A stretch of DNA of 50,164 nucleotides from a virus (lineage: Duplodnaviria; Caudoviricetes): positions 1 to 50,164 of the IMG/VR virus record IMGVR_UViG_3300021197_000796; one strand, given 5' to 3'. Under the pieces are notes generated by a model. It saw nothing but the letters and a program-made list of their open reading frames with translations. It had not been told where the DNA came from and did no database searches. The position numbers and the translations under genes are program-made. This document shows positions 1 through 43,922 of this stretch, piece after piece; within the stretch, counting starts at the first letter, position 1; the number at the start of each line of letters is the position of its first letter.

Positions 1-973
1 GTCGCTGGAGGTGTTATCAACTGACTTGCATCTAAATCATTCGCAATAAAGTTGGCATTTGCCACTCTGAAGTCAAAGTTTTTGTTCAGATTAGTCTGGT
101 TTGCATCTGTATTTGGGAAAGGTCTAATACCTGCACAACCTACATAAACACTTACCCATTCACCTATTGACACCTGTCCAATTAGTTTTTCAGCTGCGTT
201 AGGAGAACCTGCACCCCAAGCAAAGTAAATGTCACCTCCACTATTTACGTACAAGTGAATATCTTGACTTTGACTACCGCCCATACTCCAAATGTATTGG
301 TCAGATGAACCGCCACCCCACTTAAAAGTAACTGTTGATGCCCAAGTCCGTGCCTGACCATTTGAAGATGTATAACCTTCTGTTAAAATTGAATCTGCAT
401 TAATTTGCCTATCAATTGGAAGCATCATCGGTATGCGAGAGAAGTTATCACTTACCGTTTTAAGGTAGTCATTGCTTCCATCAAAATCGACAGCTTTAGT
501 CCAACTTGTTGCATTTGATGTTGGGGGAACAGGAACAGCTATTTCAGAAAGAGCAGTCCAATCAATGTCATCTGCATCTGTCGTACCAGCGTCAACTGAC
601 AGAGGAAGACCTTTTATCATAACATCAAGTTCAGTAATCCCGAAACCTTGATCACCTGATGCTACCTTAGCGGTGGAAGCCCAGTCTGCATAAGTTTCTG
701 TATTTGCATTATGATCGCTTGTTAGTGCATGTCCAACTCTGATGTTGTTGCCAGAAGATGTGACTTCTAGGAAGGCATTGTAGTTAAGGAACTGCGAAGA
801 GTTATAAAGATGAGTGCCGATCACCTTCGTTGTCATGGTACTAGTAGCGATATTGTATCCATACATCTGGAAGTTAGTGGCGCTAATTCTATAAATGGTG
901 AGCATCATGCCACCTTCAAAGCCAGTAGGAACAGCGTTACCTATGGTGTTTGCCCAAGCTCCGTCTTTTAGGC
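1..973. repeat. Imperfect terminal direct repeat, left copy (matches 49183..50164)
   Basis: Position 1 (gtcgctggaggtgttatc) equals 49183. The first ~440 bp are near identical (about 9 substitutions by eye); the rest is divergent but colinear. Confidence 0.9.
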
Positions 974-3900
974 CGATCATAAGCAGGTTTTGATCGCCCA
1001 TTGCATCAGCAAGATCAGCGAGGAATGCGCCTGACAATACCAGTCGTTGCCCTGCTCCAAGTGGCTCGTCGATTGACAACCAACCGTGCTGACCAGCAGC
1101 ATCAAAGATGTTAGTACCTGTCTGGTTAGCCGATGGACCTTCTAGAGTAACCCCAGTAACAGTTTCCGTGTAGCTTGAACCAGCAAGGGTCAACGGTACG
1201 TTAGCGTATGCGGTGCTTGTTGCGCCGTCTGTGAAGGTCAGGAATTTACTTGGTTCTACATCAGAAGGAATAACGTACTGGAAGTATGTTCCAGCATATC
1301 CTGCACCTGAACCACCCAACATAGACAGTCCATCGTTTCCTGTGACTGCATTGCCGTTGGCATCTACAATGTCAAACACATCATTGGTCTGCATTGTCGC
1401 ACCGTCCACATAGAACTTGTAGGTGCTACCTGCATTGAATGTTACCGTGTTAAAGTCCAACACAGTAGCTCCACCGTCTTGAGTGAACTTGATGGCTCCA
1501 GCTTGGTCTACAATAGTAAACTCATTACCTGCTAAGTCAGCCAACACGTTGATAGTGATCGTGCCTTGAACCGAACCAAAAGCGTTAGCCTTTGTGACAT
1601 TGATAACATGCTGGACAGATTGACCATAGCCGTTTGTGATGTCTTCAGCAGTAGCAACAATCGAAGAACCATTGTCAGCGTAGCCAGCAGGAACACCTGT
1701 GAGGTTAAACGTGTCAGTCATACCAGCAGGTTTATACTGGATGTTGATCGCGCTACCTTCTTGCACATTATAAGTAATGTTAGTGAAAGTTGGCAGGTAG
1801 TTAGCGTCATCATCTGTTGGCTGGATGTTCCAGATGACGTTCGAAACAGACTCACCATTAGGCGCAGTGTACAAACCGTTGACAGGTGCAGACGAAGCGT
1901 TCATATGGTTGCTTACGTTTGGCATGTACCAAGTGGTGCCTGTCGTGTCGTCTGCGTAAGTGTGCGTATGGCTTTCACCTGCACCAGTTAGGTCAGTATC
2001 GACTTGGTTAGCTTCTGCTGCTGTCTTGAACAACGGATAGTGGAATACACCATCAGGAGATTCAATGTAGTAGAAAGTTGCATTGTCGTCAGAACCTTCA
2101 ACACCAACTTCTGTCTCAATGAAGTCTTTGTATTGCACGAGGTCCATGTTGAAAGCACCGTTCATGCTGTCGTTCATGGTCGCCAAGTTAGTACCTGCAA
2201 CAACACCGTTGATGTACACGTTGCCCAAAGTAAGACCACGCAACTGAATCTTATCAGAAGCACGTTGAATGATGTCTACCTTAGTTCCAGCCAGTACCGA
2301 CTGTAGCTCATTCATGTTGTAGACGTTGATGACGTTACCGCCGACACCTTCATGCAGAGCAATAGTCTGTTTGAGAGTATCAACAACGATGTCAACTTCA
2401 GGAACAGACATGACGTGGTTAGAGAATGGGAGTTCACTGTAGTTACCCGCGAGAGGTGCCTTAACAGCTTTCTGACCGATAGTCTGGTAGGAGTTGTCAC
2501 CCAGAGATACACGCAGGTTAGTCAGGTCAACCTCAGAGAAGTCAATCGCATAGTCTTGACCGATAAAACCTACGTCATCTACCTTGATGATGTTCTTGTC
2601 GTTATCAGCGATAGCACCAACAGCAGACGTAATCAGGAAGCCGATTCTGTCAGTATTGGAACCGAGACCAGTGTAGTGAACCTGAGTATCCAGAATCTCA
2701 GCGATAAAGCGGAAGTCTGGGTTGTATGTAATCTGTGTGCCCAGCAGGTTATACGCATCGTTGATCTGGATGGACGCCTTAGCATCACCAGTGTTACCGA
2801 TACCGTTGTACGTGCTACGGTTGTTGTCGTACAAGCCACAGTCACGGACTGTAAGGTTAGAAGAACCCCAACCACAGACACCTGCGTTCCAGTTGCCGTT
2901 TACTTCGATCTGAGAGAACTTGTTGTTGATACCACCGATAACCAGCAGACCGTTGTTCGCGTTGTATGCCGAAGAGTTAATAGCTGCGACAACATTGTGA
3001 CAACCACCCAAAGCACCAGCAGCAACGTAGATACCAGACTCGATGTTCTGGTGTGCTTGGTTACGAGTGATGAAGCCAGCGCCGCCAATGCCACAGTCTT
3101 GTACACGGATACCACGAAGGTTCTTCTGTACGAGGTTATTACCGATCATAACCATTGTAGCTTCTTGGATACGCATAGCGCCACCGTTAGAAGCCTCAGA
3201 GCCAGCGTAGAAAGCCTGAAGGTCTACAGCAGCAGAGTCGTAACCCAGTACACCTGTCATAGACGAAGGAAGCACAGTGTTCAGACCGTTACCAGACCAA
3301 CCATTGTTTTCTAGTGTGCTGTCACGAACTTCAGTACGAGCGGTCTTAGAAGTGAAGATACCGTAGCCACCAGCGTACTTAATGGTCAGACCTTCGAAGA
3401 GGAACTTCTGGGTGTTGTCCGTGCCTGTGAAGTGAAACAAGTCACCGTTAGTTGCATCGTAGGAGGCAAAGCGAACAACAGCCTTAGAGTTACCGTAGAA
3501 CTCAAGACTGTGAGGTAGAACAAAAGCATCAGAAGAACTGTTCGGGACAATTACTTCACCTTTGATAAGGATCGAGTCGTTTGCGTTTGAGTTAGCAATA
3601 GCTACTGCGAGATCAGTGTATGGCTGAAGGGAAGAGCCTGTACGCACGGAGCCTGTGAAGGAAGGGTCAACATGGATGTCGTACTGGTCGAGGGCAGAAC
3701 CTTCGATCTCACCAATAGAAACATTAGCGTTACGGATGACTTCCCACTGAGAGGATGTCGCGTTGAACTTAACAATATCGTTTACGTTGAGGTCATAGTC
3801 TACACTATCGAAGGTGACAGTAGCAGCTACACCAACGTAGAACCAATCGCCATTGCTATAAGAGGACGTATCTGTTGTGATGTCAGTGACAGTATCCCAG

Positions 3901-4205
3901 ATACCACTGTAGTTAGCGTTGAGGCTGTTAGCGCCTGCTGCGTTAGCTGCTGTATTGATATAAGACAAGCAAGCGTCTACGTCAGCGAAAGCATCACCGT
4001 TAGCGTCTACGAAGCTAGTGAAGGGTTCGTTGAAGAACTCAAAAGCCTCCGCACCGTCACTCTTGATGTTGTTTCTGATGTTGATGTTGTCAGGGTTTGT
4101 GTCGTGAGCAAAAGCCGTAAGACAAGAGTTCCAGTAAACAGGAGTGTCTGCACCTTGGAAGTTAACACAGTTACCAGCTTCGTTACGAATAATTCTAATA
4201 GTCAT
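1..4205 (-). CDS. Giant virion fibre/adhesin-like protein (right-handed beta-helix region plus C-terminal LamG/lectin-like region); runs off the left edge
   Basis: Absent from the ORF track because it has no stop in the window. Read by eye from ATG at 4205 (MTIRIIRNEAGNCVNFQG...) to ...SQLITPPA with no stop seen (about 1401 codons). Beta-helix-like repeats (KNLRGIRVQDCGIGGAGFITRNQAHQNIESGIYV, NNGLLVIGGINNKFSQIEVNGNWNAG). Joins in frame to 49182..48744, giving about 1547 aa. Confidence 0.8.
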   Translation of the reverse strand, partial: MTIRIIRNEAGNCVNFQGADTPVYWNSCLTAFAHDTNPDNINIRNNIKSDGAEAFEFFNEPFTSFVDANGDAFADVDACLSYINTAANAAGANSLNANYSGIWDTVTDITTDTSSYSNGDWFYVGVAATVTFDSVDYDLNVNDIVKFNATSSQWEVIRNANVSIGEIEGSALDQYDIHVDPSFTGSVRTGSSLQPYTDLAVAIANSNANDSILIKGEVIVPNSSSDAFVLPHSLEFYGNSKAVVRFASYDATNGDLFHFTGTDNTQKFLFEGLTIKYAGGYGIFTSKTARTEVRDSTLENNGWSGNGLNTVLPSSMTGVLGYDSAAVDLQAFYAGSEASNGGAMRIQEATMVMIGNNLVQKNLRGIRVQDCGIGGAGFITRNQAHQNIESGIYVAAGALGGCHNVVAAINSSAYNANNGLLVIGGINNKFSQIEVNGNWNAGVCGWGSSNLTVRDCGLYDNNRSTYNGIGNTGDAKASIQINDAYNLLGTQITYNPDFRFIAEILDTQVHYTGLGSNTDRIGFLITSAVGAIADNDKNIIKVDDVGFIGQDYAIDFSEVDLTNLRVSLGDNSYQTIGQKAVKAPLAGNYSELPFSNHVMSVPEVDIVVDTLKQTIALHEGVGGNVINVYNMNELQSVLAGTKVDIIQRASDKIQLRGLTLGNVYINGVVAGTNLATMNDSMNGAFNMDLVQYKDFIETEVGVEGSDDNATFYYIESPDGVFHYPLFKTAAEANQVDTDLTGAGESHTHTYADDTTGTTWYMPNVSNHMNASSAPVNGLYTAPNGESVSNVIWNIQPTDDDANYLPTFTNITYNVQEGSAINIQYKPAGMTDTFNLTGVPAGYADNGSSIVATAEDITNGYGQSVQHVINVTKANAFGSVQGTITINVLADLAGNEFTIVDQAGAIKFTQDGGATVLDFNTVTFNAGSTYKFYVDGATMQTNDVFDIVDANGNAVTGNDGLSMLGGSGAGYAGTYFQYVIPSDVEPSKFLTFTDGATSTAYANVPLTLAGSSYTETVTGVTLEGPSANQTGTNIFDAAGQHGWLSIDEPLGAGQRLVLSGAFLADLADAMGDQNLLMIGLKDGAWANTIGNAVPTGFEGGMMLTIYRISATNFQMYGYNIATSTMTTKVIGTHLYNSSQFLNYNAFLEVTSSGNNIRVGHALTSDHNANTETYADWASTAKVASGDQGFGITELDVMIKGLPLSVDAGTTDADDIDWTALSEIAVPVPPTSNATSWTKAVDFDGSNDYLKTVSDNFSRIPMMLPIDRQINADSILTEGYTSSNGQARTWASTVTFKWGGGSSDQYIWSMGGSQSQDIHLYVNSGGDIYFAWGAGSPNAAEKLIGQVSIGEWVSVYVGCAGIRPFPNTDANQTNLNKNFDFRVANANFIANDLDASQLITPPA

Positions 4206-8173: not shown

Positions 8174-8551
8174 TTACTCCTCGTCAGTACCCTTACCCAG
8201 AGCAGCCATCAAGGCACTCACTGCACCTTCGTTCTCTTCGTCATCAGTACCAACCTCTTGCTCCTGTACGTGGGAACTAGGGGACCAACCAGCACGAGAA
8301 CGCAGGTATAGCTCTTGAGACTTGAAGTCACCTTCTAATGCTTGGTCAATAACAGTCTTGCCTACCTTAGCATCAAGAGTGAACTTAACCTCATCCATAT
8401 CCTCTCTGTACAACTTATAGAAAGTCGTGTAGGACTGAGGTGCATCCTTCATGTGCAACACAGAAGCAAAGATCTGTCTGACAGTAACACCACCACTGAT
8501 ACCTTCTCGTACCTTACGTGCGATGTTAGGGTTCTTAGGGAGTTTAGCCAT
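8174..8551 (-). CDS. terS: Probable terminase small subunit
   Basis: Start refined to ATG 8551 (MAKLPKNP); directly upstream of TerL; GDFKSQELYLRSRAGW motif typical of TerS. Confidence 0.7.
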   Translation of the reverse strand: MAKLPKNPNIARKVREGISGGVTVRQIFASVLHMKDAPQSYTTFYKLYREDMDEVKFTLDAKVGKTVIDQALEGDFKSQELYLRSRAGWSPSSHVQEQEVGTDDEENEGAVSALMAALGKGTDEE

Positions 8552-8783
8552 CAGTAGGCTCCGTTTGTGTAAGGCGCTTGTACTGCGCCGGATAGTTAAG
8601 GTGCGTCCACTCTGTAGCACCGCGATTGAAAGCGACCTCGACGGCACTCTCAAGGTCGGACTCAAGGTCTTCGATCCAAGCTGCCGCAGCAACGGCCACA
8701 GAAGCATCGGCTGCACTGGACGATTTGCGCTTACTTATGAAGTCCAAAGAATTTAGTAGCTGCTCCGTATTGCCTCTAAACAT
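8544..8783 (-). CDS. Hypothetical protein, first gene of the late operon
   Basis: 79 aa, AAGGAG RBS upstream, overlaps the TerS start. Confidence 0.6.
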   Translation of the reverse strand: MFRGNTEQLLNSLDFISKRKSSSAADASVAVAAAAWIEDLESDLESAVEVAFNRGATEWTHLNYPAQYKRLTQTEPTDG

Positions 8784-8861
8784 CTGTTTTTTGCTCCTTA
8801 CTATTAGTTGCGTCCCGCTCCTTTGTTACTCAGTAACGTATGTTGTGTTGTGGGGTTGTCT

Positions 8862-8892
8862 GGAGCCTTTCCACAAAATTGTGGATTGCCAC
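8862..8892 (-). promoter_or_regulatory. 31-bp element with palindromic core TCCACAA-NN-TTGTGGA; second copy at 15836..15866
   Basis: Reverse complement gtggcaatccacaattttgtggaaaggctcc vs gtggcaatccacaaaattgtggaaaggctct inside the ParB-like gene. Confidence 0.65.
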
Positions 8893-9156
8893 CTGTCTCT
8901 ACCACAACGCTATAGTTACCCCGTCACTCACAGCTTAATTGCTGGTGGAAACAGGGTTCCCTCTTGGGGAGGAAATTCTTATGGGGGAATATTATAATAC
9001 CACCCCTAATAAGTAATTCTTAGGGGTCGCTAGGAATCTGCCCTAGGACTGCACCATGAATCACATTGGTGTAACTTAAGTATAGCTTAAGTATAACTTA
9101 CTTTACGTAAGAACTTATATCTTAATGATTAATAATTATAGATTATAATACTGTTG

Positions 9157-9221
9157 TGATTCTTATGTATAACTTAAGTACCTCTTACTTATATGTAGTT
9201 ATGGATTTCAGATCACACAAG
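9157..9221 (-). promoter_or_regulatory. 65-bp element, copy B (candidate phage-factor-dependent late promoter)
   Basis: 57/65 ungapped identity to 15335..15399, opposite orientation, pointing into the terminase/late operon; followed by an AT-rich tract with CTTAAG palindromes. Confidence 0.65.
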
Positions 9222-9879
9222 CAGTTTCTTCTCTAGTGCGTCATTTTGTAGCAATATTATACTATACTGTGACATAAATAACACTACTATAGGTATTTTC
9301 CTTTTGTTTTTATTTCTAGGGGTCGCTTCATATGTGATTCTTGGGGTGGTACATATGAGATTCATGTAGGGTGTGGTATCTAAAGAACACATAGGGGCTT
9401 CAGCGCCGGAATGACGTAGCGTCACCCTGAAGTATTTTCTTTCTTTTGGATTCCGACTGGTGTACCCCACACCCCTAGCGAATCACCTGAGAATCCAGAG
9501 GGACCCTAATGTCAAGACCCAATGCACACCCCGCGCCATTATCTTTAGATGTGTTGCATCTGTGCACTAGTGTAGCCCCAATGCAACTAACATAAGGATT
9601 CCAATGGTTTACGCTTGACAACCAAAGAAATTCATGGGCCGAGGATAGGCGAATCGCAGCACCACAGTTAATTGTAACACGTTCCAACATTAGCCTACCC
9701 AATGCGTGCACCTGCGCACATTACCAATGCAACCCAATGATAACGTGCGCAAATGTCCAATGCCTCTCACAAGCGATATAAGCGCCAATGAAGGCCATGT
9801 AACTTGTCAGGCTAGGGCTATAGCCAAAGTGCCCCGTATAGCATCACAAATAGGCTTATAGCGGCTATGCTATCGCGGA

Positions 9880-10116
9880 TCATACTAATTCAACCCGCCA
9901 GTAACCCCGACGTTGCATGCCCTTAAACGTACTATAATCTTTCCCTTTGATAGCTGTATCAATCTTGCGGCGCATATCCATAGATTGACCAAACGAAACA
10001 CCTTGCCAATCCCACGTTTTAGACCAGCGCTGATTGACTATCACTTGCGCAATGGCCTCTTTTTCACATGTGATTGATTGATTCTTATCCATCGGCTTTA
10101 CGTTAATGTGACTCAT
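9880..10116 (-). CDS. Hypothetical early protein
   Basis: 78 aa; GGAG RBS (ggagtcttgatATG). Confidence 0.65.
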   Translation of the reverse strand: MSHINVKPMDKNQSITCEKEAIAQVIVNQRWSKTWDWQGVSFGQSMDMRRKIDTAIKGKDYSTFKGMQRRGYWRVELV

Positions 10117-10117
10117 A

Positions 10118-10285
10118 TCAAGACTCCTTCATCATACGGCAATATGACTCATGGCATTCACAGCCTAGTCGGATAAGTGTTGAGGCTTGCTTAAGTGTTA
10201 GCCCATTGTGATCCGCATAGGCTCGCATAGTCAGATAATTGTTGACATATTCCAGATAGGCTTCGCGTAGTTTATCGAATTGCAT
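10118..10285 (-). CDS. Hypothetical early protein (55 aa, MQFDKLREAYLEYVNNYLT...)
   Basis: Below the ORF-track cutoff; AAGGA RBS; fills the gap in the leftward operon. Confidence 0.6.
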   Translation of the reverse strand: MQFDKLREAYLEYVNNYLTMRAYADHNGLTLKQASTLIRLGCECHESYCRMMKES

Positions 10286-10326
10286 TGCATTAATCCTTAT
10301 TTAAACCGAAGTTTTCTGATTCCCTT

Positions 10327-10584
10327 TTATCCGTAAGGGCAATATTCCATTTTAGGGCCAGCGGGTTCTAGTCGAGTAACCGCGATACCGTCCAAACCTT
10401 TGGATACTTTGCGCTTAGGGTTAGCGCAAATGTTTACGCAAGCGTGCAATCTGGCCTCTCGTTCAAGCGTGGTGGACTCGTTCCAGAGTCTACCCCTTGT
10501 TACCCCGTTGACGTAAACCTTTTTACCGCTTGGGGTGTAGTATTCTGCGGAGAAGTAAAACAGTTGTGTTTGCCTTTTAATCAT
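10327..10584 (-). CDS. Hypothetical early protein
   Basis: 85 aa; same ggagtcttgatATG leader as 10116. Confidence 0.6.
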   Translation of the reverse strand: MIKRQTQLFYFSAEYYTPSGKKVYVNGVTRGRLWNESTTLEREARLHACVNICANPKRKVSKGLDGIAVTRLEPAGPKMEYCPYG

Positions 10585-10585
10585 A

Positions 10586-10882
10586 TCAAGACTCCATCTT
10601 GCGTTTCATCTGCTCGCCTGCGTCAATCCAAGCGTTGATAACGTCGTATGTTTCCCTAGCGGTTCCACGTGGTGACAAGTCGCGCTCACCTGTACCACCA
10701 CTAAAACAAACCATTTGGGACAAGCGGTGCCCGCCATAGGCCGAGTTAAGGACGAACGTGCCGTGATTGCCTTTGACATTGCCTTGCGAGTCGCGTGTGT
10801 AAGGTTCAAGGTCATATCCGAAAACATCGTTCAGAATATCCAAGCGCTTTTGCAGAATTGCCATAGTTATACGTTGTGTCAT
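10586..10882 (-). CDS. Hypothetical early protein
   Basis: 98 aa, AAGGA RBS. Confidence 0.65.
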   Translation of the reverse strand: MTQRITMAILQKRLDILNDVFGYDLEPYTRDSQGNVKGNHGTFVLNSAYGGHRLSQMVCFSGGTGERDLSPRGTARETYDVINAWIDAGEQMKRKMES

Positions 10883-10904
10883 GATGTAGATTCCTTTGAT
10901 TAGA

Positions 10905-11075
10905 TTAAATAGATTGCGTGTTGACGATAGCTAGCTGAAAAAACTCGCCTTTGCGTGTTGCCAGTTCTAACGCCTTTTCAGCTTGCGCGCGGCTCATTAA
11001 GGGCAAGCCATCAATCGGCATGAATTGCTCTTTGATATTGTTGCGGGCTGCTAGGGTATAAGTTGCGTTAGACAT
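10905..11075 (-). CDS. Hypothetical early protein (likely start MSNATYTL)
   Basis: AAGGAG RBS upstream of the internal ATG of the tracked ORF. Confidence 0.55.
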   Translation of the reverse strand: MSNATYTLAARNNIKEQFMPIDGLPLMSRAQAEKALELATRKGEFFQLAIVNTQSI

Positions 11076-11590
11076 TATTTCGTCTCCTTGTTTGTTAGGT
11101 ACGTTCCGCCATCCGCATTGCTTTTCATAACAAAGCGCGCGGGCATTTTCTTGCGACCCTTTTGGATAAGGCGGAAGCGGTGCTGTTGGTCCCATAGGCC
11201 CATAATATAGTCCGTTAGGTCTTGTTCGATGTTGCGTGCTTGCATGTTATAATTTCCTAATTGATTGACTCGCGTTATTGCAAGCCAATGAAAAGGGAAA
11301 GTATTAATCCGGCCCCGTGAATCAACCGTGGGCGCTAGACAGGCCCGTCAGACCCGTTCCCCCGTTCCCTATATGGGCGGCGGCATAAGGGAACACTAGC
11401 GGCAAGATTCGGGGGCCGCAAGCCCTAAAATGGTAAAATGTGAAAAACACGAAAAAAGATTCTAGGGGGCGAGTCCGGGACTCTTTCCGATTAGGCATAA
11501 GAAGGATATAGAATCGCGGGCGCGCGTTATCTCAGAACGCCATGAGTCGTCAATAGTTATTCGGTGACGCAACGTTAACTAGATGCCCTA

Positions 11591-11620
11591 TTGACAAAAC
11601 ATGATTCGCCCTGCTATGTT
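11591..11620 (+). promoter_or_regulatory. sigma70-type promoter P0 with GANTC in spacer
   Basis: TTGACA-aaaca-TGATTCG-ccctgc-TATGTT (18-bp spacer). Confidence 0.6.
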
Positions 11621-11775
11621 AGAGGTTCTGCGACTCATGTGAAATACGAATCGTTGGCGTGCAATAATAAACAGGTGAATCTGATATGGCAACCCGTTGT
11701 AACATACATCACAAAACTGTTACCTATTGTAACAATCTGAAACAAACAGCGAGTCAGGCACAGGAATCACCCGAC

Positions 11776-11863
11776 ACCCCACCGAGGGAATTAGAGACCC
11801 CCACAGGGGAATTAGAGACCCCACCGAGGGAATTAGAGCTGCACCCCCACAGGGGAATTAGAG
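11776..11863. repeat. Four 21-bp direct repeats (iteron-like), alternating A/B/A/B
   Basis: accccaccgagggaattagag / acccccacaggggaattagag at 11776, 11797, 11818, 11843. Confidence 0.9.
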
Positions 11864-11908
11864 ATTGTTTGTAGTATAACCTGTTGATAACAAAATAAAA
11901 TAAAACTG

Positions 11909-11937
11909 TTGACATCTAACCCGAATCACGTCATAAG
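11909..11937 (+). promoter_or_regulatory. sigma70-type promoter P1 with GANTC in spacer
   Basis: TTGACA-tctaacc-CGAATCA-cgt-CATAAG, AT-rich UP-like tract upstream; weak -10. Confidence 0.6.
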
Positions 11938-12042
11938 TAATTCATACAAGGAGACAACACTTGACAGACCAAGATGACCCATGCGATGACTGGTCAGACT
12001 ATAAGATCCCAGAGACCGACGACACAAGTAAGGAGAAACCAG

Positions 12043-12201
12043 ATGACTAAGAAAACATGCGACTCCTTTCTCTGCACCAACAAGTGCCCTAAGAAGTACA
12101 GATACTGCTATGACTGCGCAAAGAGAAAAGGTTTGATTGGCGGGGGTAATAACTGGGGTCTTGTTGTCCTCGTGATAATCCTTTTGCTTTGGTTCCTTTA
12201 G
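12043..12201 (+). CDS. Small Cys-rich protein with C-terminal TM helix
   Basis: AAGGAG RBS before ATG 12043; CDSFLC..C..YCYDC, hydrophobic tail. Confidence 0.6.
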   Translation: MTKKTCDSFLCTNKCPKKYRYCYDCAKRKGLIGGGNNWGLVVLVIILLLWFL

Positions 12202-12204
12202 CTC

Positions 12205-12234
12205 TTGACAACCCTGAACGAATCATGCTATAAT
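12205..12234 (+). promoter_or_regulatory. sigma70-type promoter P2 with GANTC in spacer
   Basis: TTGACA-accctgaa-CGAATCA-tgc-TATAAT: perfect consensus hexamers. Confidence 0.85.
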
Positions 12235-12261
12235 GAACGCACACTAACAAGGAGAACACTA

Positions 12262-12501
12262 ATGACTAAAACAGCAACATACTACACCGAAGACGACCTC
12301 ATCTGTGTCACCTTTGAATCAGAAGGTCGCATGAACGACTACGGTGTGTCTCGCAGCCCTGTGTGGTGGGAGCCTACAGATATCACAGTGCATACACTAG
12401 AGATCGCTGGTGAAGAGGAAAACTTCAGTGAGTTGTCTGCTACGGTACAAAAAGCTATCCTTTCTCTCGCTGACGGGTTAAACAACGACGATTGGGAATA
12501 A
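12262..12501 (+). CDS. Hypothetical early protein
   Basis: AAGGAG RBS, ATG 12262 (MTKTATYY). Confidence 0.7.
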   Translation: MTKTATYYTEDDLICVTFESEGRMNDYGVSRSPVWWEPTDITVHTLEIAGEEENFSELSATVQKAILSLADGLNNDDWE

Positions 12502-12504
12502 CAC

Positions 12505-12533
12505 TTTACAATACCTCACGAATCACCTACACT
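12505..12533 (+). promoter_or_regulatory. sigma70-type promoter P3 with GANTC in spacer
   Basis: TTTACA-atacctca-CGAATCA-cc-TACACT (17-bp spacer). Confidence 0.75.
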
Positions 12534-12567
12534 TAAGACATACCAACAAAGAACAGGAGAATAACTA

Positions 12568-12924
12568 ATGACTAACCAAGAAGCTTTTGATAAAATGATG
12601 AACCACCTGCGTAGCCTCAAGGGACGTAGTGTTAACAAAGATGGTTTTTGTGTGTACAACGGCCTTAAGTGTCCTGTTGGTGTTCTTATGACTGACGAAG
12701 AACAAGAACAGTTTGGTGATTTCAAGGGTAGTGTAGACCACCTCCTTGAGGAAATGTGGTCAAACGGACACGAATCCATGCTTCATGGTTTGAACTTTGC
12801 GTTATTAAGCTATACGCAAGCTCTTCATGATGATGGCGGGTACTGGGATGCCCGAGGTTTTGCTGCTGAAGAGTCAGCTAAAAAAATCGCTATTCAGTTT
12901 GGACTGACCTACAATAAGCCTTGA
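12568..12924 (+). CDS. Hypothetical early protein, paralog 1
   Basis: 118 aa, AGGAG RBS; tandem paralog of 12978..13334. Confidence 0.8.
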   Translation: MTNQEAFDKMMNHLRSLKGRSVNKDGFCVYNGLKCPVGVLMTDEEQEQFGDFKGSVDHLLEEMWSNGHESMLHGLNFALLSYTQALHDDGGYWDARGFAAEESAKKIAIQFGLTYNKP

Positions 12925-12949
12925 CACTGACTCACGAATCACCTATACT
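12921..12949 (+). promoter_or_regulatory. sigma70-type promoter P4 with two GANTC in spacer
   Basis: TTGACA-ctGACTCa-CGAATCA-cc-TATACT (17-bp spacer). Confidence 0.8.
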
Positions 12950-12977
12950 TAGGACATATCAACAAGGAGAATAACTA

Positions 12978-13334
12978 ATGACCAACCAAGAAGCTTTTGA
13001 TAAAATGATGAACCACCTACGTAGCCTCAAGGTACGTAGTATGAGCGAAGGTGGTTCTTGTGTGTACAACGGTTCTAAGTGTCCGGTTGGCTTTCTTATG
13101 ACTGACGAGGAACAAGAGAAGTGGGGTACATTCGAAGGTGATGTTCACGAACTTCTTGAGGACATGAGCCGCAAAGGTCACAAGTCTTTGCTTCATGATT
13201 TGGACCCCGATTTCTTAGAAAATGTGCAAATTCTTCACGATCAGCGGTGGCGATGGGATGAGAGAGGGTTTGTCGGTGAAGAGTCAGCTAAAAAAACCGC
13301 TGAACATTTCGGACTGACCTACACTAATCCTTGA
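12978..13334 (+). CDS. Hypothetical early protein, paralog 2
   Basis: 118 aa; same N-terminus MTNQEAFDKMMNHLRSLK as paralog 1. Confidence 0.8.
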   Translation: MTNQEAFDKMMNHLRSLKVRSMSEGGSCVYNGSKCPVGFLMTDEEQEKWGTFEGDVHELLEDMSRKGHKSLLHDLDPDFLENVQILHDQRWRWDERGFVGEESAKKTAEHFGLTYTNP

Positions 13335-13360
13335 CAATACCTCACGAATCGCTGTAGCAA
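13331..13360 (+). promoter_or_regulatory. sigma70-type promoter P5 with GANTC in spacer
   Basis: TTGACA-atacctca-CGAATCG-ctg-TAGCAA; weak -10. Confidence 0.65.
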
Positions 13361-13385
13361 CACTTATATTAACAAGGAGACTAAC

Positions 13386-13661
13386 ATGCTTACTAAAGAA
13401 ACAGTACAACAAGCCCTAGACACAATCAAAGGCACGATGTTCACGATTGACTTCCTAACGGTAGCTGGTGAGCCTCGTACGTACAACGGACGCCTTAACA
13501 CTAAGAAAGGTCTCAAGGACAACGAGCGTAGTGCTGTCGTACGTGCTGCATTCGAAGCTAATGGTGTTGTCCCTATTAAACTAACAGACGGAATTAGCTA
13601 CAAAGCCTTTAAGCTAGACCGTGTTGTGGCTATCCGTGGTGCAGGTCAGGAGTGGACATAA
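13386..13661 (+). CDS. Conserved phage protein, possibly SH3/WYL-like beta-barrel
   Basis: Pattern FTIDFLTVAGEPRTYNG...YKAFKLDRV; fold is a guess. Confidence 0.6.
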   Translation: MLTKETVQQALDTIKGTMFTIDFLTVAGEPRTYNGRLNTKKGLKDNERSAVVRAAFEANGVVPIKLTDGISYKAFKLDRVVAIRGAGQEWT

Positions 13662-13882
13662 TGAACATCACCATACTTAAGAGTAAGGAGATCCAAGACC
13701 CGTTGCCTGACCGTATACATATTCAAAATGCACACCTAGCAGCTACAAAGGAAGATTGGGGTTATACTATTATCAAAGACAGGATTAACGATAAGGTAGG
13801 TGTACATATGACACATCAAGAGTTTTGGACTTATGTGTCGGACTTGGAGAAAGAACGAGTATATAACACGCGATATCAATAG
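13661..13882 (+). CDS. Hypothetical protein
   Basis: TAATG coupling with the upstream gene. Confidence 0.6.
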   Translation: MNITILKSKEIQDPLPDRIHIQNAHLAATKEDWGYTIIKDRINDKVGVHMTHQEFWTYVSDLEKERVYNTRYQ

Positions 13883-13902
13883 AAACTAAGAAGGAATAAC
13901 TT

Positions 13903-14301
13903 ATGACACCCCTGATGTGCATGGCAGTAGCGGTATTCTTTGAAGCCAGAGGAGAACCTATGGTCGGCAAGGAGGCAGTAGCTAACGTAATCATCAACCG
14001 AGTGGAAGACAAACGTTACCCTAACTCAGTTTGTGCAGTGGTGAACGAACATAAAGCCTTCAGCTACACTCACGATGGCCTCTCAGACGACCCTACGCGC
14101 CACACAGGGCATCAGGACAAGATTGCATGGGTAGAGTCTCAAGAGGTAGCTAAGGACGCTCTTAGTGGTGATCTGTTAGGTATCACCAGTACGCACTACC
14201 ACACAACAAATGTCTTGCCTTTCTGGGCTAAGCACTATAGTTTTGACGCAAGGATCGGGGAGAATCACCTGTTCTACACTAACGAAACACCTTATAAATA
14301 G
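13903..14301 (+). CDS. Cell wall hydrolase (SleB/Hydrolase_2 family)
   Basis: CMAVAVFFEARGE...VANVIINRV...YPNSVCAVV...FS, THYH, HLFY motifs. Confidence 0.9.
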   Translation: MTPLMCMAVAVFFEARGEPMVGKEAVANVIINRVEDKRYPNSVCAVVNEHKAFSYTHDGLSDDPTRHTGHQDKIAWVESQEVAKDALSGDLLGITSTHYHTTNVLPFWAKHYSFDARIGENHLFYTNETPYK

Positions 14302-14310
14302 GATACACAC

Positions 14311-14472
14311 ATGACATTCGAACTAGAGCAACAACTCCGAGAACTAGGCATCATGCCAGCAGATACATTCACAGAACTAGCAGCGCCCGTACAGGACTAC
14401 CGTGAGAAGTTCTTAGCTAAAGGTTACTACAACGATCCACGCGACCCCTTGACTGGTGAAGTACCTTTCTAA
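14311..14472 (+). CDS. Hypothetical protein (53 aa, MTFELEQQLRELG...GEVPF)
   Basis: Below the track cutoff; AGGA RBS; acidic-PF C-terminus. Confidence 0.6.
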   Translation: MTFELEQQLRELGIMPADTFTELAAPVQDYREKFLAKGYYNDPRDPLTGEVPF

Positions 14473-14498
14473 TAACATAAGAAACTGGAGAATAACAC

Positions 14499-14735
14499 AT
14501 GAATATCTACTATATGGGTGAGAATATCACAAAGAGCCGTTTCCCTATCAAGGTCTGGAACGAGCAAGTCAAACGTGACGTAGGGGCTACGAAATGTCCA
14601 GCAGAGGAATACCAACCTCACTCAGAGCGTTGGGGTGAGCCAGAGCCTGATGGTGTAGGTCCAGATGCAGGGTTGCGTTGGGTGAACAACACAGACGACA
14701 CACGAGTAGACACATTCCCAAAGGAAGACAAATAA
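14499..14735 (+). CDS. Hypothetical protein
   Basis: 78 aa, GGAG RBS. Confidence 0.6.
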   Translation: MNIYYMGENITKSRFPIKVWNEQVKRDVGATKCPAEEYQPHSERWGEPEPDGVGPDAGLRWVNNTDDTRVDTFPKEDK

Positions 14736-14736
14736 C

Positions 14737-15324
14737 ATGACACCTGAGTTCATCACTACACTATCCAAGAAGAGTGCCTTTAAGTATCGCAACTCAAGCC
14801 ACCACGACGATTTGGTATCCGAAGGGATCATGGCTGCATACGAGGAGCTAACAGAGAACCCTGAGACGACAGAGCAGCGTATGTATCAGGTTATCAACTG
14901 GGCGCAGTGGAAGTTTCTTAATGTAGATCGACTGCCTGTCACGATCCCTTTTCAGCTTGTAAGGGTAGCCAAAGGTTTCGGTGATCCTGATGACAAGCAG
15001 GGTTTCTCAGATGAAACTATTGCTTGGGCAAAGGTTATTTTATCTCAAGGTCAGATGAAATCTGAACACCACGATGTAGATCAAGAGTCAGATCAAGCCC
15101 AAGAGTATTCTGATGCAGACCTTTTGGACAGCATCTGGGAATCTGCTAAAGAGTGTCTTACAGAAGAGGATTACGGTTTGTTTCACTCTCACTTTGAAGT
15201 GGGACTAGATCAAAAGTCTTTAGGGGGTATGCTTGAGGTATCGCAACAGTCTGTCAGTCTCCGACTACTTAAAATAAACGAAAAGGTCCGAAAGCACGTT
15301 GTGAACAAAAAATGGGAGTTGTAA
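14737..15324 (+). CDS. Phage-encoded sigma70-like factor (region 2-like and region 4 HTH)
   Basis: DDLVSEGIMAAYE resembles sigma region 2.2; C-terminal LTEED...LDQKSLGGMLEVSQQSVSLRL resembles the region 4 HTH. Confidence 0.7.
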   Translation: MTPEFITTLSKKSAFKYRNSSHHDDLVSEGIMAAYEELTENPETTEQRMYQVINWAQWKFLNVDRLPVTIPFQLVRVAKGFGDPDDKQGFSDETIAWAKVILSQGQMKSEHHDVDQESDQAQEYSDADLLDSIWESAKECLTEEDYGLFHSHFEVGLDQKSLGGMLEVSQQSVSLRLLKINEKVRKHVVNKKWEL

Positions 15325-15334
15325 CATTACGTGA

Positions 15335-15399
15335 CTTGTGGAATCTGGAACCCATAACTACATATAGGTAAGAGACACTTAAGGTATACATAAGAATCA
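15335..15399 (+). promoter_or_regulatory. 65-bp element, copy A (candidate phage-factor-dependent middle promoter)
   Basis: cttgtggaatctggaacccataactacatataggtaagagacacttaaggtatacataagaatca; 57/65 identical to 9221..9157. Confidence 0.65.
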
Positions 15400-15483
15400 A
15401 CACAAGTTCTTTTAGTACATAATCATCATGGTTATAAATACTAAAGAATAACATAAGTAATACATAAGAAAGGAAGGAAGAGG

Positions 15484-16335
15484 ATGCTTTACGAGTATCA
15501 TGAAATCTGTCTGTGGCTACCACACAAGCCTGAGACGGTAGAAGACATCGCTGCTGACATCAAGGATAATGGTTTCAGACCTGATCGGGCTATTGTAACC
15601 TATGAGGGTAAGATTCTAGATGGTCGTCACCGTTATGAGGCTGCACTAGAAGCAGGTGTTGACCCTGTGTTCACGGAGTTCAGTGGCGATAAGCGAGAGG
15701 CTATCAACTATGTTACCTCTGAGAATGTCGCACGGCGGCACTTGAACAACAAAGAGAAGGAGTATTTCTACATTAAATCTGCCGCGTTTTTTGGTGTACA
15801 GTCACGCGGTGGAGAGAGGGGTAATCAGTACCAAAGTGGCAATCCACAAAATTGTGGAAAGGCTCTACCCCAAGGAGAACATGCAAAGGCTTTAGGAGTC
15901 CACGTAAACACCATAACAAGCTGGGAGAAAGACCGTAAGGAGATCGTGGCTGACGAAGAACTGGCAGAAAAGGCGAAGACCCCTGAAGGTTATCAAGAGG
16001 CTAAGAAGACCGTAAAAGAACGCAGGGTGAGCAAGCAGCAACAAACAAGAGAGGCTATTGCTAATACTGTCGCACCTAACGTGATTGACCTACACGCTAT
16101 CGCTAAGGACAAGAGTTCTGTAGACATTCGTAACATTGCTCCAGCTTTCGTTGGTCAGATGGAGATGCTTTGTACGAAGTTCGATGAGCTAGACATCAAG
16201 ATGGAAATCGCAGCTTTTATGCACCCAGACCCTCTTGGACTAAAGGTAAAAGCCTTACATGAGATGGCAAATATTCTAGACGACCTACGAGCAGACTTTC
16301 CTGTTGAAACGCAGGATCACCAGAAACTAAACTAA
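15484..16335 (+). CDS. ParB/Srx N-terminal domain protein with HTH
   Basis: DIKDNG...GKILDGRHRYEA ParB box, SENVARRHL, HTH HAKALGVHVNTITSW. Confidence 0.8.
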   Translation: MLYEYHEICLWLPHKPETVEDIAADIKDNGFRPDRAIVTYEGKILDGRHRYEAALEAGVDPVFTEFSGDKREAINYVTSENVARRHLNNKEKEYFYIKSAAFFGVQSRGGERGNQYQSGNPQNCGKALPQGEHAKALGVHVNTITSWEKDRKEIVADEELAEKAKTPEGYQEAKKTVKERRVSKQQQTREAIANTVAPNVIDLHAIAKDKSSVDIRNIAPAFVGQMEMLCTKFDELDIKMEIAAFMHPDPLGLKVKALHEMANILDDLRADFPVETQDHQKLN

Positions 16336-21554: not shown

Positions 21555-21631
21555 CCTCACGTAGCTCAACTGGATAGAGCAAGTGCCTTCTAAGCACTAG
21601 GTTGCAGGTTCGAATCCTGCCGTGAGGACCA
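21555..21631 (+). tRNA. tRNA-Arg (anticodon UCU)
   Basis: Cloverleaf: acceptor CCTCACG/CGTGAGG, D arm GCTC..GAGC, anticodon arm AGTGC-CTTCTAA-GCACT, T arm GCAGG-TTCGAAT-CCTGC, encoded CCA. Confidence 0.97.
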
Positions 21632-25730: not shown

Positions 25731-25908
25731 AACAGTCTTTATGTCCTTGACACTAGTGTTACTAGTGTATATTGCTTATGTACAGCATAAATCTTATATG
25801 TACACACAGTACATTCTGGTAGCAACAGCGAATCTTCTGATTACATTTCAGGAAGCAGCGGAGCTTAACAAAGGAGAGAACTATGGGGAAACGCAGCAAT
25901 TTCACTAG
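25723..25908 (+). CDS. Small membrane protein
   Basis: 61 aa, hydrophobic N-terminus. Confidence 0.55.
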   Translation: MVETVFMSLTLVLLVYIAYVQHKSYMYTQYILVATANLLITFQEAAELNKGENYGETQQFH

Positions 25909-26419
25909 GAACGAACGGGACTTCTACCCGACACCTATTAAAGCTGTAGAACCTCTTATCGACCATCTCCCGTATGAGGACTTTACTTATGTAGAGCCTT
26001 GTGCTGGCGATGGTCGCCTCGTGAACCACCTCTCAGAGCTTACAGCAGGCTCTGGGTTGTGTGTTCATAAGAGCGACATAGAACCTCAAGCACCTGATGT
26101 CCTTCGTCTGGATGCAATGGGTTTACTGGCGATAGAGGACGTAGACTTCTGCATTACTAATCCACCTTGGGATACGGACTTTCTGCACCCTTTCCTTGAG
26201 TGGTATGCCACACAGATGCCCACTTGGGTGCTGAATAAGGCAGATTGGATGCACACTAAGAAGTCAGCGGAGTATATGCAGTATTGCAAGAAGGTTGTGT
26301 CTATCGGTAGGGTCAAGTGGATCGAAGACAGCAAAAGCACAGGTATGGACAATAGTTGTTGGTATCTCTTTGATTATCACCACGAAGGGCCAACAGAATT
26401 TTATGGGAGACTAATATGA
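25883..26419 (+). CDS. Orphan DNA methyltransferase (amino-MTase, probably N6-adenine)
   Basis: DFYPTP, SAM motif EPCAGDG, catalytic TNPPW. Confidence 0.85.
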   Translation: MGKRSNFTRNERDFYPTPIKAVEPLIDHLPYEDFTYVEPCAGDGRLVNHLSELTAGSGLCVHKSDIEPQAPDVLRLDAMGLLAIEDVDFCITNPPWDTDFLHPFLEWYATQMPTWVLNKADWMHTKKSAEYMQYCKKVVSIGRVKWIEDSKSTGMDNSCWYLFDYHHEGPTEFYGRLI

Positions 26420-27161: not shown

Positions 27162-27361
27162 TAGAAGACAAAGATGTAAACATTCAGGTGTACTCGTGTG
27201 GAGAGGGTCACACCATCCAAGTTCTAAAGGCAGAGGGAGATCAAATCCTTTTTATTAAACACTGGCAGCCAAGAGAGGACTACCTAGATTTTGGCGAGGG
27301 CAACTTCGTAAAACTTCTTGAGTTCCTTGGCTACAGGGTATACCACGAGGAGATGGAATAA
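27158..27361 (+). CDS. Hypothetical protein
   Basis: 67 aa, ATGA coupling. Confidence 0.6.
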   Translation: MIEDKDVNIQVYSCGEGHTIQVLKAEGDQILFIKHWQPREDYLDFGEGNFVKLLEFLGYRVYHEEME

Positions 27362-43913: not shown

Positions 43914-43922
43914 CTAAGTCTC

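Follow-up and report, generated by a model that had tools for sequence, protein, structure and literature searches.

Does the early region of this phage carry promoters that read the adenine methylation of its host? [quoted passage not shown] GcrA and CcrM form an epigenetic module of the alphaproteobacterial cell cycle, and their mechanism is described as conserved in Alphaproteobacteria. The window analyzed here, 50,164 nt in length, is the whole genome of a lytic CRP-6-like phage. Because its closest cultured phage is Roseobacter phage CRP-6 (69% identity of the capsid in protein comparison), which infects an RCA Roseobacter and hence an alphaproteobacterium, an alphaproteobacterial host is plausible for the window phage. 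According to the literature, CcrM is kept across most Alphaproteobacteria, and marine Alphaproteobacteria are reported to show GANTC methylation consistently.

The early region gave no DNA-level match to cultured phages, and related phage loci were collected through protein searches. Searches of bacterial genomes with the capsid protein recovered no prophage-like relatives, and those with the cell-wall hydrolase returned a single match, to an irrelevant archaeal MAG.

Six promoters with GANTC in the spacer

All six promoters are present where they had been placed (starting at 11591, 11909, 12205, 12505, 12921 and 13331), with sigma70-type hexamers separated by 16–19 nt, and the motif in the spacer is indeed CGAATC(A/G) in five of them and TGATTCG in the sixth. 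All lie on the plus strand. P1 (11591..11620), a class B promoter, consists of TTGACA (11591–11596), 5 nt, TGATTCG on the top strand (11602–11608) and TATGTT (11615–11620); GANTC occurs again 3′ of it at 11632 and 11648, and the same architecture is found in relatives L006, L008, L009, L086, L117 and L063. The other five belong to class A. P2 (11909..11937) has TTGACA (11909–11914), 7 nt, CGAATCA (11922–11928) and CATAAG (11932–11937), and P3 (12205..12234) has TTGACA (12205–12210), 8 nt, CGAATCA (12219–12225) and TATAAT (12229–12234), its hexamers being identical to the consensus at 12 of 12 positions. P4 (12505..12533) combines TTTACA, 8 nt, CGAATCA (12519–12525) and TACACT (12528–12533); P5 (12921..12949) combines TTGACA, 8 nt, CGAATCA (12935–12941) and TATACT (12944–12949), with a second GANTC, GACTC at 12929, in its spacer. 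P6 (13331..13360) carries TTGACA, 8 nt, CGAATCG (13345–13351) and a weak −10, TAGCAA (13355–13360). P3 is predicted to drive the ORF at 12262–12501, P4 the ORF at 12568–12924, P5 its paralogue at 12978–13334, and P6 a conserved gene at 13386–13661. CRP-6 has an orthologue of P6 in front of gp05, its GAATC being at position 932. A consensus scanner alone picked up P1, P3, P4 and P5 and missed P2 and P6, which have weaker −10 hexamers.

Two leftward promoters are predicted on the minus strand. PL1 (11664..11692; TTGCCA, 17 nt, TATTAT) faces P1 and contains GATTC (11677–11681) in its spacer, and its counterpart in L009 has GAATC at the equal spacer position. PL2 (11616..11643; TTCACA, 16 nt, TAACAT) has GAGTC directly after the −35, overlaps the −10 of P1 and is conserved in L009. 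Promoter start sites were taken from the positions of the −10 hexamers; no RNA run is listed among those containing positions 9000–14500, of which nine DNA or unclassified runs contain small shares.

Conservation of the box in related phages

P4, P5 and P6 are tandem duplicates, along with the paralogous genes 12568–12924 and 12978–13334 (repeat families D1 and D2), so that the window holds about four independent promoters rather than six. The motif could thus be a by-product of promoter duplication, of spacers rich in A and C, or of chance. Counting supports this only in part. When both strands of the whole window were scanned with up to three mismatches, GANTC was found inside a promoter-like spacer at seven sites, namely P1–P6 and the leftward promoter at 11692–11664, all of them within 11.59–13.36 kb. 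Dinucleotide-preserving shuffles of the 4.4-kb early region (n = 1000) averaged 0.14 such sites with a maximum of 2, so that none of the 1000 reached even three. Shuffles of the whole window (n = 200) gave a mean of 1.6 and reached the observed seven, their maximum, once; the count by itself is therefore only moderately unusual. The outstanding features of the promoter set are its clustering and its fixed geometry rather than the number of sites.

The related phages are more informative on this point. From 17 of their contigs we obtained 29 de-duplicated class A promoters, all of which keep an architecture of the type TTGACA-N8/9-(A/C)GAATC(A/G)-N3/4-TA. Median pairwise identity outside GAATC is only 0.32 in this set; the hexamers and the box are all that the promoters have in common, and sharing of the box without shared flanking sequence indicates that they are independent. 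The position table of the 29 promoters displays TTGAC(A/T/G) upstream and TA-A in the −10. The central base of the pentamer is always A, the base 5′ of GAATC is A or C in 29/29, which is less surprising given that the spacers are A/C-rich, and the base 3′ of it is A or G in 28/29 and nearly always A. At 965 de-duplicated TTGAC(A/T/G) sites, the distance to GANTC peaks at offsets 8 (18 sites), 9 (17) and 6 (12), other offsets having around 5; at the first two of these distances, 29 of the 35 sites have GAATC as their form of GANTC. On the opposite strand of the loci tested the strict class A pattern is absent throughout, being confined to the early-transcribed strand, and it is likewise absent from phages CRP-4, ICBM2, S-B28 and RsoP1EGY. 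An origin of the motif in duplication, composition or chance is already disfavoured by these data and we regard it as very improbable; the suspicion that the motif is a mere relic of recent promoter duplication does not hold, and the low identity of the related contigs also speaks against one recently shared promoter cassette.

The distribution of the strict pattern is uneven. CRP-6 itself has one strict class A promoter only, and 8 of the 17 loci that were anchored on the terminase and extend at least 4 kb upstream have none, though most of these eight may end before the rightward arm. None was found in the 10-kb upstream stretch of L105 or in the primase-anchored locus L020.

Correspondence with the GcrA box

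The available sections of the structural and genomic studies of GcrA, all of them on Caulobacter, give the consensus as TGATTCG, which is also the crystallised site, and more broadly as YGAKTCK (Haakonsen 2015, PMC4647560; Wu 2018, PMC5887438; Wu 2023, PMC9976885). The assignment of the spacer motif to the methylation motif preferred by GcrA agrees with this published consensus, which is that of Caulobacter and may not be that of the host. Measured against the Caulobacter consensus, YGAKTCK is present on one strand in all six window promoters and in 28 of the 29 promoters of the relatives.

Orientation agrees as well, and position would do so approximately on the assumed numbering. GcrA boxes of activated Caulobacter promoters are centred narrowly near −20, or at +2 to +30, in the accessible text of PMC4647560, and the other position we encountered in the consulted part of the Caulobacter GcrA literature is −20 ± 1. 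The scaffold of the GcrA–RNA polymerase–promoter complex solved by cryo-EM reads TTGACA-7 nt-GAATC-5 nt-TATAAT, as described in the portion of the report at hand (Wu 2023, PMC9976885). The phage box has the orientation of this scaffold and lies 1 bp, sometimes 2 bp, nearer to the −10. The −10 starts with its TA 4 nt past GAATC in most promoters of class A, which would place the centre of the box at about −19. If the −10 hexamer is taken to occupy −12 to −7, most class A boxes are centred at −19 and some at −18, and those of class B at about −22. Given that P3 matches the consensus at every hexamer position and that several other promoters come near it, these promoters might also work without an activator.

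The site might alternatively belong to another protein. GAATCA would then be an operator, either for the ParB/HTH-like phage product encoded at 15484–16335, which would silence the early promoters, or for a different host factor. The spacer between −35 and −10 is a classical position for repressors, the ParB-like protein with its HTH-like stretch is encoded just outside the early region, and GAATC followed by A is a narrower sequence than either CcrM or YGAKTCK requires. A 7-bp asymmetric site is nevertheless short for a dimeric repressor, and this one is the top-ranked GcrA site, found in the orientation of a GcrA box and at about its position; moreover, it persists among relatives even though their early genes differ. 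We consider an operator of this kind unlikely, also in view of the GANTC pattern described below.

A GANTC island in a depleted genome

GANTC sites are concentrated well beyond the promoters that carry the putative GcrA boxes. An island at 9000..13400 holds 45 of the window's 126 sites in 4.4 kb, and extends over non-coding sequence, the small early genes that run leftward, the divergent intergenic region and the promoter cassettes that run rightward. Density amounts to about 10 sites per kb in the early region versus 1.8 per kb elsewhere, and CRP-6 and relatives have this island too. Ranked by Markov z-score, GAGTC/GACTC and GAATC/GATTC stand at 1019–1024 of 1024 pentamers in the early region of both the window and CRP-6, and all four GANTC variants are depleted outside it in both genomes. 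Judging from these ranks, GANTC itself is the unit under selection, and an operator with the sequence GAATCA leaves unexplained why all four variants are enriched early and depleted elsewhere. The island over the whole early region, set against depletion across the genome, is a pattern that goes beyond the earlier note.

Relative to expectation from base composition, the window has 126 GANTC sites for 193 expected, CRP-6 69 for 174, CRP-4 63 for 156 and ICBM2 60 for 159; the corresponding values are 159 for 168 in a Synechococcus phage and 144 for 150 in a Ralstonia phage. In this small panel of phages, depletion tracks the host. CcrM-bearing Alphaproteobacteria have GANTC depleted at least 2-fold overall and over-represented between genes, a usage that the phage pattern mirrors. 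We rejected the idea that the island is a general trait of Roseobacter phages, since CRP-4 and ICBM2 are depleted of GANTC without having an island, and also the idea that it is foreign DNA under other constraints, since CCWGG is avoided both inside and outside it. GcrA-type flanks were likewise rejected as an explanation for the whole island. Outside the six promoters, YGAKTCK is found at 10 of its 39 GANTC sites, close to the quarter expected by chance, and GcrA boxes therefore do not account for the island.

This last observation also bears on the possibility that the island serves mainly replication or packaging, as an origin-like region in which methylation would time replication and of which the promoter boxes would be a part. 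Chromosomal origins in four orders of Alphaproteobacteria are surrounded by a strong rise in GANTC, the island includes direct repeats resembling iterons and non-coding sequence rich in A and T, and phages with T7-type replication genes often begin replication at promoters. The minimum of the cumulative GC skew falls at the island too, but skew also follows gene orientation and so does not provide independent evidence. What such a feature leaves unexplained is why position, strand and flanks of the box are fixed in 29 promoters, and we hold it to be quite improbable as the main explanation. Roles of the island in replication and in transcription are compatible and not exclusive.

Phage-encoded factors and other elements of the early region

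Which of the proteins required could the phage supply? The reported lack of a phage gcrA stands: profile PF07750, for which Caulobacter served as positive control, matches nothing at E ≤ 1 in six frames of the window and of five relatives. A CcrM-type beta-class methyltransferase (PF01555, N6_N4_Mtase) likewise gave no match at E ≤ 1 in the window and five related records. Host factors would therefore be required.

The phage does probably encode an N6-adenine DNA methyltransferase of another type, as suggested by motifs, PHROG and Atlas labels and predicted fold. This predicted minimal enzyme of 178 aa (25883..26419, plus strand) has the gamma-class order of motifs, the SAM-binding motif I (EPxxGxG) being followed by the catalytic motif IV (NPPW), and 32 homologues all share FYPTP, EPCAGDG and TNPPW without change. 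It bears the label "DNA methyltransferase" of phrog_799 in addition to the Atlas label. The predicted structure (pLDDT 85.4) adopts a Rossmann methyltransferase fold, with best fold matches to M.TaqI, CamA, M.BseCI and type I M subunits (TM-score on the query 0.52–0.63, E 2e-6 to 1e-4). Searches with the single protein and with a profile against Pfam, NCBIfam and PDB sequences returned nothing useful, a bromodomain identity was dismissed on account of weak matches (E ~0.1), and no separate target-recognition domain is evident within the 178 aa. The enzyme could itself write marks on the promoter boxes. Both this methyltransferase and the sigma factor described next add to what had been recognised in the earlier note.

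The last gene within the early region (14737..15324, plus strand) codes for a probable phage sigma factor of 195 aa, predicted to be ECF-like and of the sigma70 family. Residues 12–187 match TIGR02937 with an E value of 2.2e-8 and 33.9 bits, below the curated cut-off of 42.9; there is a weak match to phrog_351, none to Pfam at E ≤ 0.001, and the protein is conserved in relatives. A search of viral contigs with it returned two loci only, both on contigs of known relatives. Inverted repeats bracket the region (pair I1, 70 nt, 86% complementary) and are conserved in L009 and L008. The left arm (9152..9221, minus strand) contains a promoter-like element that faces outward, to the terminase and structural genes, and the right arm (15335..15404, plus strand), which begins 11 nt past the sigma-factor gene, faces outward to the ParB-like, primase and replication genes. 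Between P1 and P2 lie four direct repeats of about 21–25 nt each (11773..11863, plus strand; repeat family D4), with CRP-6 and L009 having comparable repeats at the corresponding site, and the ORF at 11686–11874 is probably not a gene. An Rfam scan of positions 8500–16000 gave no match at E ≤ 0.1.

A model for early transcription

On balance, P1–P6 are probably host-sigma70 early promoters with a built-in GcrA box, a GANTC site of the high-affinity type TGATTC(G/T), centred about 19–20 bp before the start and read through its methylation. From the observed architecture, conservation, strand specificity and GANTC pattern, we infer methylation, GcrA binding, activation and a temporal cascade in the following manner. 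The box would be adenine-methylated by host CcrM, or possibly by the small adenine methyltransferase of the phage. Host GcrA carried on sigma70 RNA polymerase would dock its DNA-binding domain on the methylated box, stabilising polymerase and open-complex formation at the phage early promoters. Expression would begin with the small early genes and the sigma factor of the phage, and the latter would then take over transcription at promoters in the arms of the inverted repeats and beyond. The start of infection may thus depend on the methylation and cell-cycle state of the host; that the virion inherits its methylation from the previous host is speculation.

A bolder proposal, unlikely when all its parts are taken jointly, is that a group of lytic marine phages abundant worldwide uses adenine methylation as a built-in timer and sensor, with a memory across phage generations. 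Only a methylated genome would be read by the GcrA-loaded sigma70 polymerase of the host, and the marks on island and boxes would stem from the narrow cell-cycle window of CcrM, or from the phage enzyme in the previous host. Infection would start immediately in replicating cells and stall in others. As new copies would be un- or half-methylated, early transcription would silence itself and the phage sigma factor would take over, in an epigenetic switch from early to late.

If the model is true, this would be the first viral early transcription dependent on a host methylation reader, and a concrete way for a lytic marine phage to sense whether its slow-growing host replicates. The GcrA/CcrM module has so far been a matter of host promoters, with phiCbK-type phages that carry gcrA as the only case on the phage side. 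CRP-6-type phages are ubiquitous and abundant in the ocean, according to the available part of their description (PMC6918029), and such an effect would therefore bear on the infection dynamics of RCA Roseobacter. The idea is directly testable, CRP-6 and its host being in culture and CRP-6 carrying an orthologous promoter. Further handles are offered by the island, by GANTC depletion across the genome and by the small adenine methyltransferase of the phage, and the promoter set constitutes a natural series of GcrA-box variants for studies of GcrA.

Comparison with known systems

A search of titles and abstracts in the open literature found no phage promoters with GcrA boxes, and the words "promoter" and "sigma" are absent from the available text of the CRP-6 paper (PMC6918029). 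Lytic phages that tie early transcription to a host regulator are documented elsewhere: the early promoters of Bacillus phages phi29 and Nf bear sites for host Spo0A, as reported in the sections at hand of PMC2731898. The window phage would resemble them in wiring its early promoters to a host regulator and so reading the state of the host. As far as that partial source goes, the host factor of phi29 and Nf represses and acts without DNA methylation, whereas here it would be an activating, methylation-reading sigma70 cofactor.

Control by Dam methylation at GATC is known in phages and mobile elements of enterobacteria, for phage Mu mom, the P1 pac site and the IS10 transposase promoter. Methylation acts there mostly by keeping a repressor off or by changing the −10. 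As in these systems, an orphan adenine methyltransferase of the host would set the activity of mobile-element promoters; unlike in them, the methyltransferase and the reader would be different ones, and a dedicated reader would switch on an entire series of early promoters. Dam/OxyR and Dam/Lrp control are mentioned in the accessible part of PMC4647560.

Nearer to the present case, phiCbK-like Caulobacter phages encode their own GcrA homologue (Gill 2012, PMC3556154, in the portion consulted). They would share with the window phage the engagement of the host cell-cycle GcrA module by an alphaproteobacterial phage, on the evidence of that same portion. The phiCbK-like phages carry the trans factor, whereas the window phage carries the cis element and is devoid of gcrA; the available text of PMC3556154 describes no GANTC-bearing phage promoters and does not contain the string "GANTC".

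The closest parallel is offered by the −20 class of GcrA promoters in Caulobacter crescentus, such as PcsM, which, in the parts of the literature available, combine a sigma70 −35/−10 with a GANTC in the spacer that conforms to TGATTCG/YGAKTCK and is centred near −20. In the phage, too, it is the template strand that bears the consensus-like reading, in agreement with the accessible description of the Caulobacter cryo-EM scaffold (PMC9976885). The window promoters differ from those of C. crescentus in being phage-borne, in being arrayed as a series of small early-gene cassettes and in having near-consensus −35 and −10 elements. They differ further in that the box lies 1 bp (in some 2 bp) nearer to the −10, and in a Roseobacter-type host, in which GcrA would be the putative factor that reads the box.

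Six sigma70-type promoters in the early region

Six sigma70-type promoters on the plus strand (P1 to P6, starting at 11591, 11909, 12205, 12505, 12921 and 13331) were found exactly where the earlier note had placed them, each with GANTC in the -35/-10 spacer. P2 to P6 form class A (TTGACA, 8-9 nt, GAATC, 3-4 nt, -10), and P1 represents class B (TTGACA, 6 nt, GATTC, 7 nt, -10). The best promoter-like sites with a spacer GANTC on both strands of the whole window numbered seven, namely P1 to P6 and one leftward promoter facing P1, compared with a maximum of two in 1000 shuffles of the early region and a mean of 1.6 (maximum 7) in 200 shuffles of the whole window. Because P4, P5 and P6 are tandem copies, duplicated along with two paralogous 118-aa early genes of unassigned function (phrog_17693; duplicated stretches 12555-12854 and 12965-13264, 76% identical), the window alone offers about four independent cases.

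The rightward P1 overlaps two predicted leftward promoters face to face over ~100 bp (11591-11692), each with a spacer GANTC; this layout, also present in the related contig L009, could act as a switch between the two early arms. Four copies of a direct repeat of ~21-25 nt lie between P1 and P2 (11773-11863), and Roseobacter phage CRP-6 (locus L002, 44770-44870) and L009 have repeats of other sequence at the equivalent place. CRP-6 contains about ten copies of a 16-nt unit (TTGCAA-AATGTCAC type) alternating with CGAATC or GATTCG sites. Both sets of repeats are possible iterons or regulator sites.

Conservation of the promoter motif

Relatives were collected using a primase anchor (33 loci) and a terminase anchor (209 matching stretches, 80 kept). 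The window and 91 family loci contained 1637 TTGAC[A/T/G] sites, of which 965 were left after removal of near-copies at 80% identity over 45 nt. Among these, the commonest offsets between the hexamer and the start of GANTC are 8 (18 sites), 9 (17) and 6 (12), other offsets having about 5. Offsets 8 and 9 together hold 35 sites, 29 of which, from 17 contigs, read GAATC; this set of 29 was chosen by GAATC itself, so the invariance of GAATC within it is a selection criterion. The base 5' of GAATC is A or C in all 29 promoters and the 3' base is A in 22 cases, G in six and C in one, a flank preference weaker than it looks because the spacers are A/C-rich. Recognition of GAATCA by a protein other than GcrA is an unlikely alternative. 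In most of the 29 promoters the TA of the -10 lies 4 nt past GAATC, and the remaining spacer positions are variable, with a median pairwise identity of 0.32 outside GAATC. The earlier note had named, as one outcome that would refute its reading, a motif merely left over from promoter duplication; given a box kept in 29 de-duplicated promoters with little else in common, this comparison indicates that it is not such a relic, and chance or duplication, the latter evident at P4 to P6, is scarcely credible as an explanation.

A strict class A pattern (-35 with at most one mismatch, N8/9, MGAATCR, TA after 3-5 nt) was present in eight of the nine primase-anchored loci that reach at least 4 kb upstream, the exception (L020) being a more distant phage. 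Of 17 terminase-anchored loci with the same minimum reach, nine have it and several others may stop before the rightward arm; it was not found in L105, a terminase-anchored locus with 10 kb upstream. CRP-6 carries it once, 5' of gp05, which is homologous to the gene that follows P6. The pattern had zero matches on the opposite strand of all loci scanned, and zero in phages CRP-4, Lentibacter phage ICBM2, Synechococcus phage S-B28 and Ralstonia phage RsoP1EGY. Class B was found in the window and six other contigs. The promoter motif is real, and the comparative evidence makes the case much stronger.

Genome organization and likely host

The record (50,164 bp, estimated complete) encodes a Mu-type portal, large terminase, tail tube and tape measure, a T7-type replication module (primase-helicase, split family A polymerase, exonuclease, endonuclease I), and a class II ribonucleotide reductase, ThyX and MazG. 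A tRNA-Arg (anticodon TCT; 21555-21631, +) and a DUF1127 small protein (27361-27537, +; E 1e-13) lie within the replication module. A leftward gene block spans 1 to ~11.2 kb, a rightward block ~11.6 to 32.6 kb, and a second leftward block 32.7 kb to the record end. ORFs leave both record ends on the same strand (3-4205 and 48744-50162, both -); the record probably represents a permuted or circular assembly whose cut lies within or beside a very large structural gene. The host is likely an alphaproteobacterium because the nearest cultured relative, CRP-6, which has the same gene order (69% identity in capsid, 38% in primase), infects an RCA-lineage Rhodobacteraceae strain.

Two pairs of inverted repeats bracket the early region, one of 70 nt (9152-9221 and 15335-15404; 86% complementarity) and one at 8863-8892 and 15836-15865. 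In each repeat arm an outward promoter-like element precedes a conserved leader containing ACTTAAGTTATACATAAGAATC, both kept in the related contigs L009 and L008; these elements are candidate middle or late promoters, perhaps serving the phage sigma factor. The last gene inside the bracket (14737-15324, +) probably codes for an ECF-like sigma factor (TIGR02937 match at E 2e-8, under the curated threshold) and is conserved in relatives, CRP-6 gp14 being weakly similar. The outward promoter-like elements of the arms and the position of the sigma gene, a matter of layout alone, suggest a cascade in which host sigma70 would first transcribe the bracketed region, and the phage sigma factor would then drive outward transcription, to the right through the replication genes and to the left through those for packaging and structure. 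Beside the small leftward genes, a 0.9-kb non-coding stretch (8960-9880) with an AT-rich core, 11-nt tandem units (9058-9193), several GCATTGG-containing repeats spotted by eye and no Rfam match could be a packaging or origin region.

A GANTC island in a depleted genome

The window contains 126 GANTC sites, against 200 +/- 15 in shuffles, and 43 of them fall within 9001-13000. Under a third-order Markov expectation for all 1024 pentamers, the early region (9000-13400) and the rest of the genome show opposite trends: GAGTC/GACTC is the top over-represented pair in the former (GAATC/GATTC at ranks 1019-1020) and has a ratio of 0.51 in the latter (ranks 5-6 from the bottom; GAATC/GATTC 0.77). Similarly, GAGTC/GACTC tops the last 2.9 kb of CRP-6 (ranks 1023-1024; GAATC/GATTC 1017-1018) and has a ratio of 0.20 elsewhere in that genome (GAATC/GATTC 0.61). 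Twenty-two terminase-anchored loci extend at least 3.2 kb upstream; in every one GANTC is denser there than over the terminase and the genes downstream of it, and 19 contain one or more 500-bp bins with at least 6 sites.

Within a small panel, depletion follows the host: GANTC is depleted in the four Rhodobacteraceae phages and not in the Synechococcus and Ralstonia phages, and the island occurs only in CRP-6-like phages. The whole genomes of the Cobavirus-type Roseobacter phages CRP-4 and ICBM2 are ~2.5-fold depleted and have neither an island nor class A promoters. CCWGG, the most depleted pentamer, is near-absent from the window (2 sites, 41246 and 46307, versus ~72 expected under the Markov model) and from relatives (one site in CRP-6, none in L006, L009 and L010), which suggests strong avoidance of a host EcoRII/Dcm-type restriction system. 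Since CCWGG is almost absent from the island also, we rejected the idea that the island is simply foreign DNA.

The leftward early genes place GANTC in the ribosome-binding site (GGAGTC or GGAATC, 5-6 nt, ATG; window 9880-10900 (-), CRP-6 42800-44340 (-)), and the rightward early genes use AAGGAGA. In the window three genes have the GGAGTC-type context, as do at least four starts in CRP-6; the control strand and the rightward arm show no instance. This context accounts for part of the GAGTC excess. Non-promoter island sites do not have GcrA-type flanks more often than chance (10 of 39); this and the sites in ribosome-binding regions limit how far GcrA reading can extend, and the island as a whole is only partly explained. 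A role of the island related to replication, compatible with GcrA reading, is rather improbable. The phage pattern mirrors that of CcrM-bearing Alphaproteobacteria, where the motif is depleted at least 2-fold overall, enriched in intergenic DNA (Gonzalez 2014, PMC3973325) and concentrated near origins (PMC9836097).

A candidate source of the methyl mark

Six-frame searches of the window and five related records revealed neither a GcrA homologue, bearing out the earlier note, nor a CcrM-type enzyme (PF01555). A 178-aa product (25883-26419, +) is probably a minimal N6-adenine DNA methyltransferase-like protein, as judged by its FYPTP, EPCAGDG and TNPPW motifs and predicted fold. Its family is very large in marine metagenomes (4773 homologues found); the motifs are invariant among 32 homologues compared, and of the 120 matches listed not one bears a functional name. 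The model (pLDDT 85) is nearest to the N6-adenine DNA methyltransferases M.TaqI, CamA, M.BseCI and type I M subunits. In this small sample the gene co-occurs with the island, being present in CRP-6, L010 and L013 and not found in CRP-4, ICBM2 and two outgroup phages. A GANTC specificity would mean that the phage itself primes its early promoters. The earlier note had overlooked this gene.

Comparison with known GcrA-dependent promoters

Binding of the promoter motif by GcrA is the best-supported explanation and a somewhat probable one, in which we infer every functional step from sequence. It would mean that a virus exploits the epigenetic control of promoters by the host's GcrA and CcrM, an idea open to test in a cultured phage-host pair (CRP-6). 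Our literature searches on GcrA, CcrM or GANTC and phages returned no description of phage promoters with GcrA boxes; phiCbK-like phages have GcrA homologues (Gill 2012, PMC3556154).

The published GcrA consensus is TGATTCG, more broadly YGAKTCK, and the promoter response is set by box location and flanking nucleotides (Haakonsen 2015, PMC4647560); the DNA-binding domain was crystallised on methylated TGATTCG (Wu 2018, PMC5887438); and upstream boxes lie mostly at -20 +/- 1 and -30 +/- 2 (Wu 2023, PMC9976885). Given its flanks, the class A template strand reads TGATTC(G/T). The non-template strand of the cryo-EM scaffold (TTGACA, 7 nt, GAATC at -22 to -18, 5 nt, TATAAT; Wu 2023, PMC9976885) has the same orientation as class A, whose box is 1 bp nearer the -10. 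In P1, TGATTCG is on the top strand and sits ~3 bp upstream of the class A position; extra GANTC sites follow ~10 to 25 bp beyond the assumed start. With start positions assumed from the hexamers, the phage promoters appear to be textbook GcrA-box promoters.
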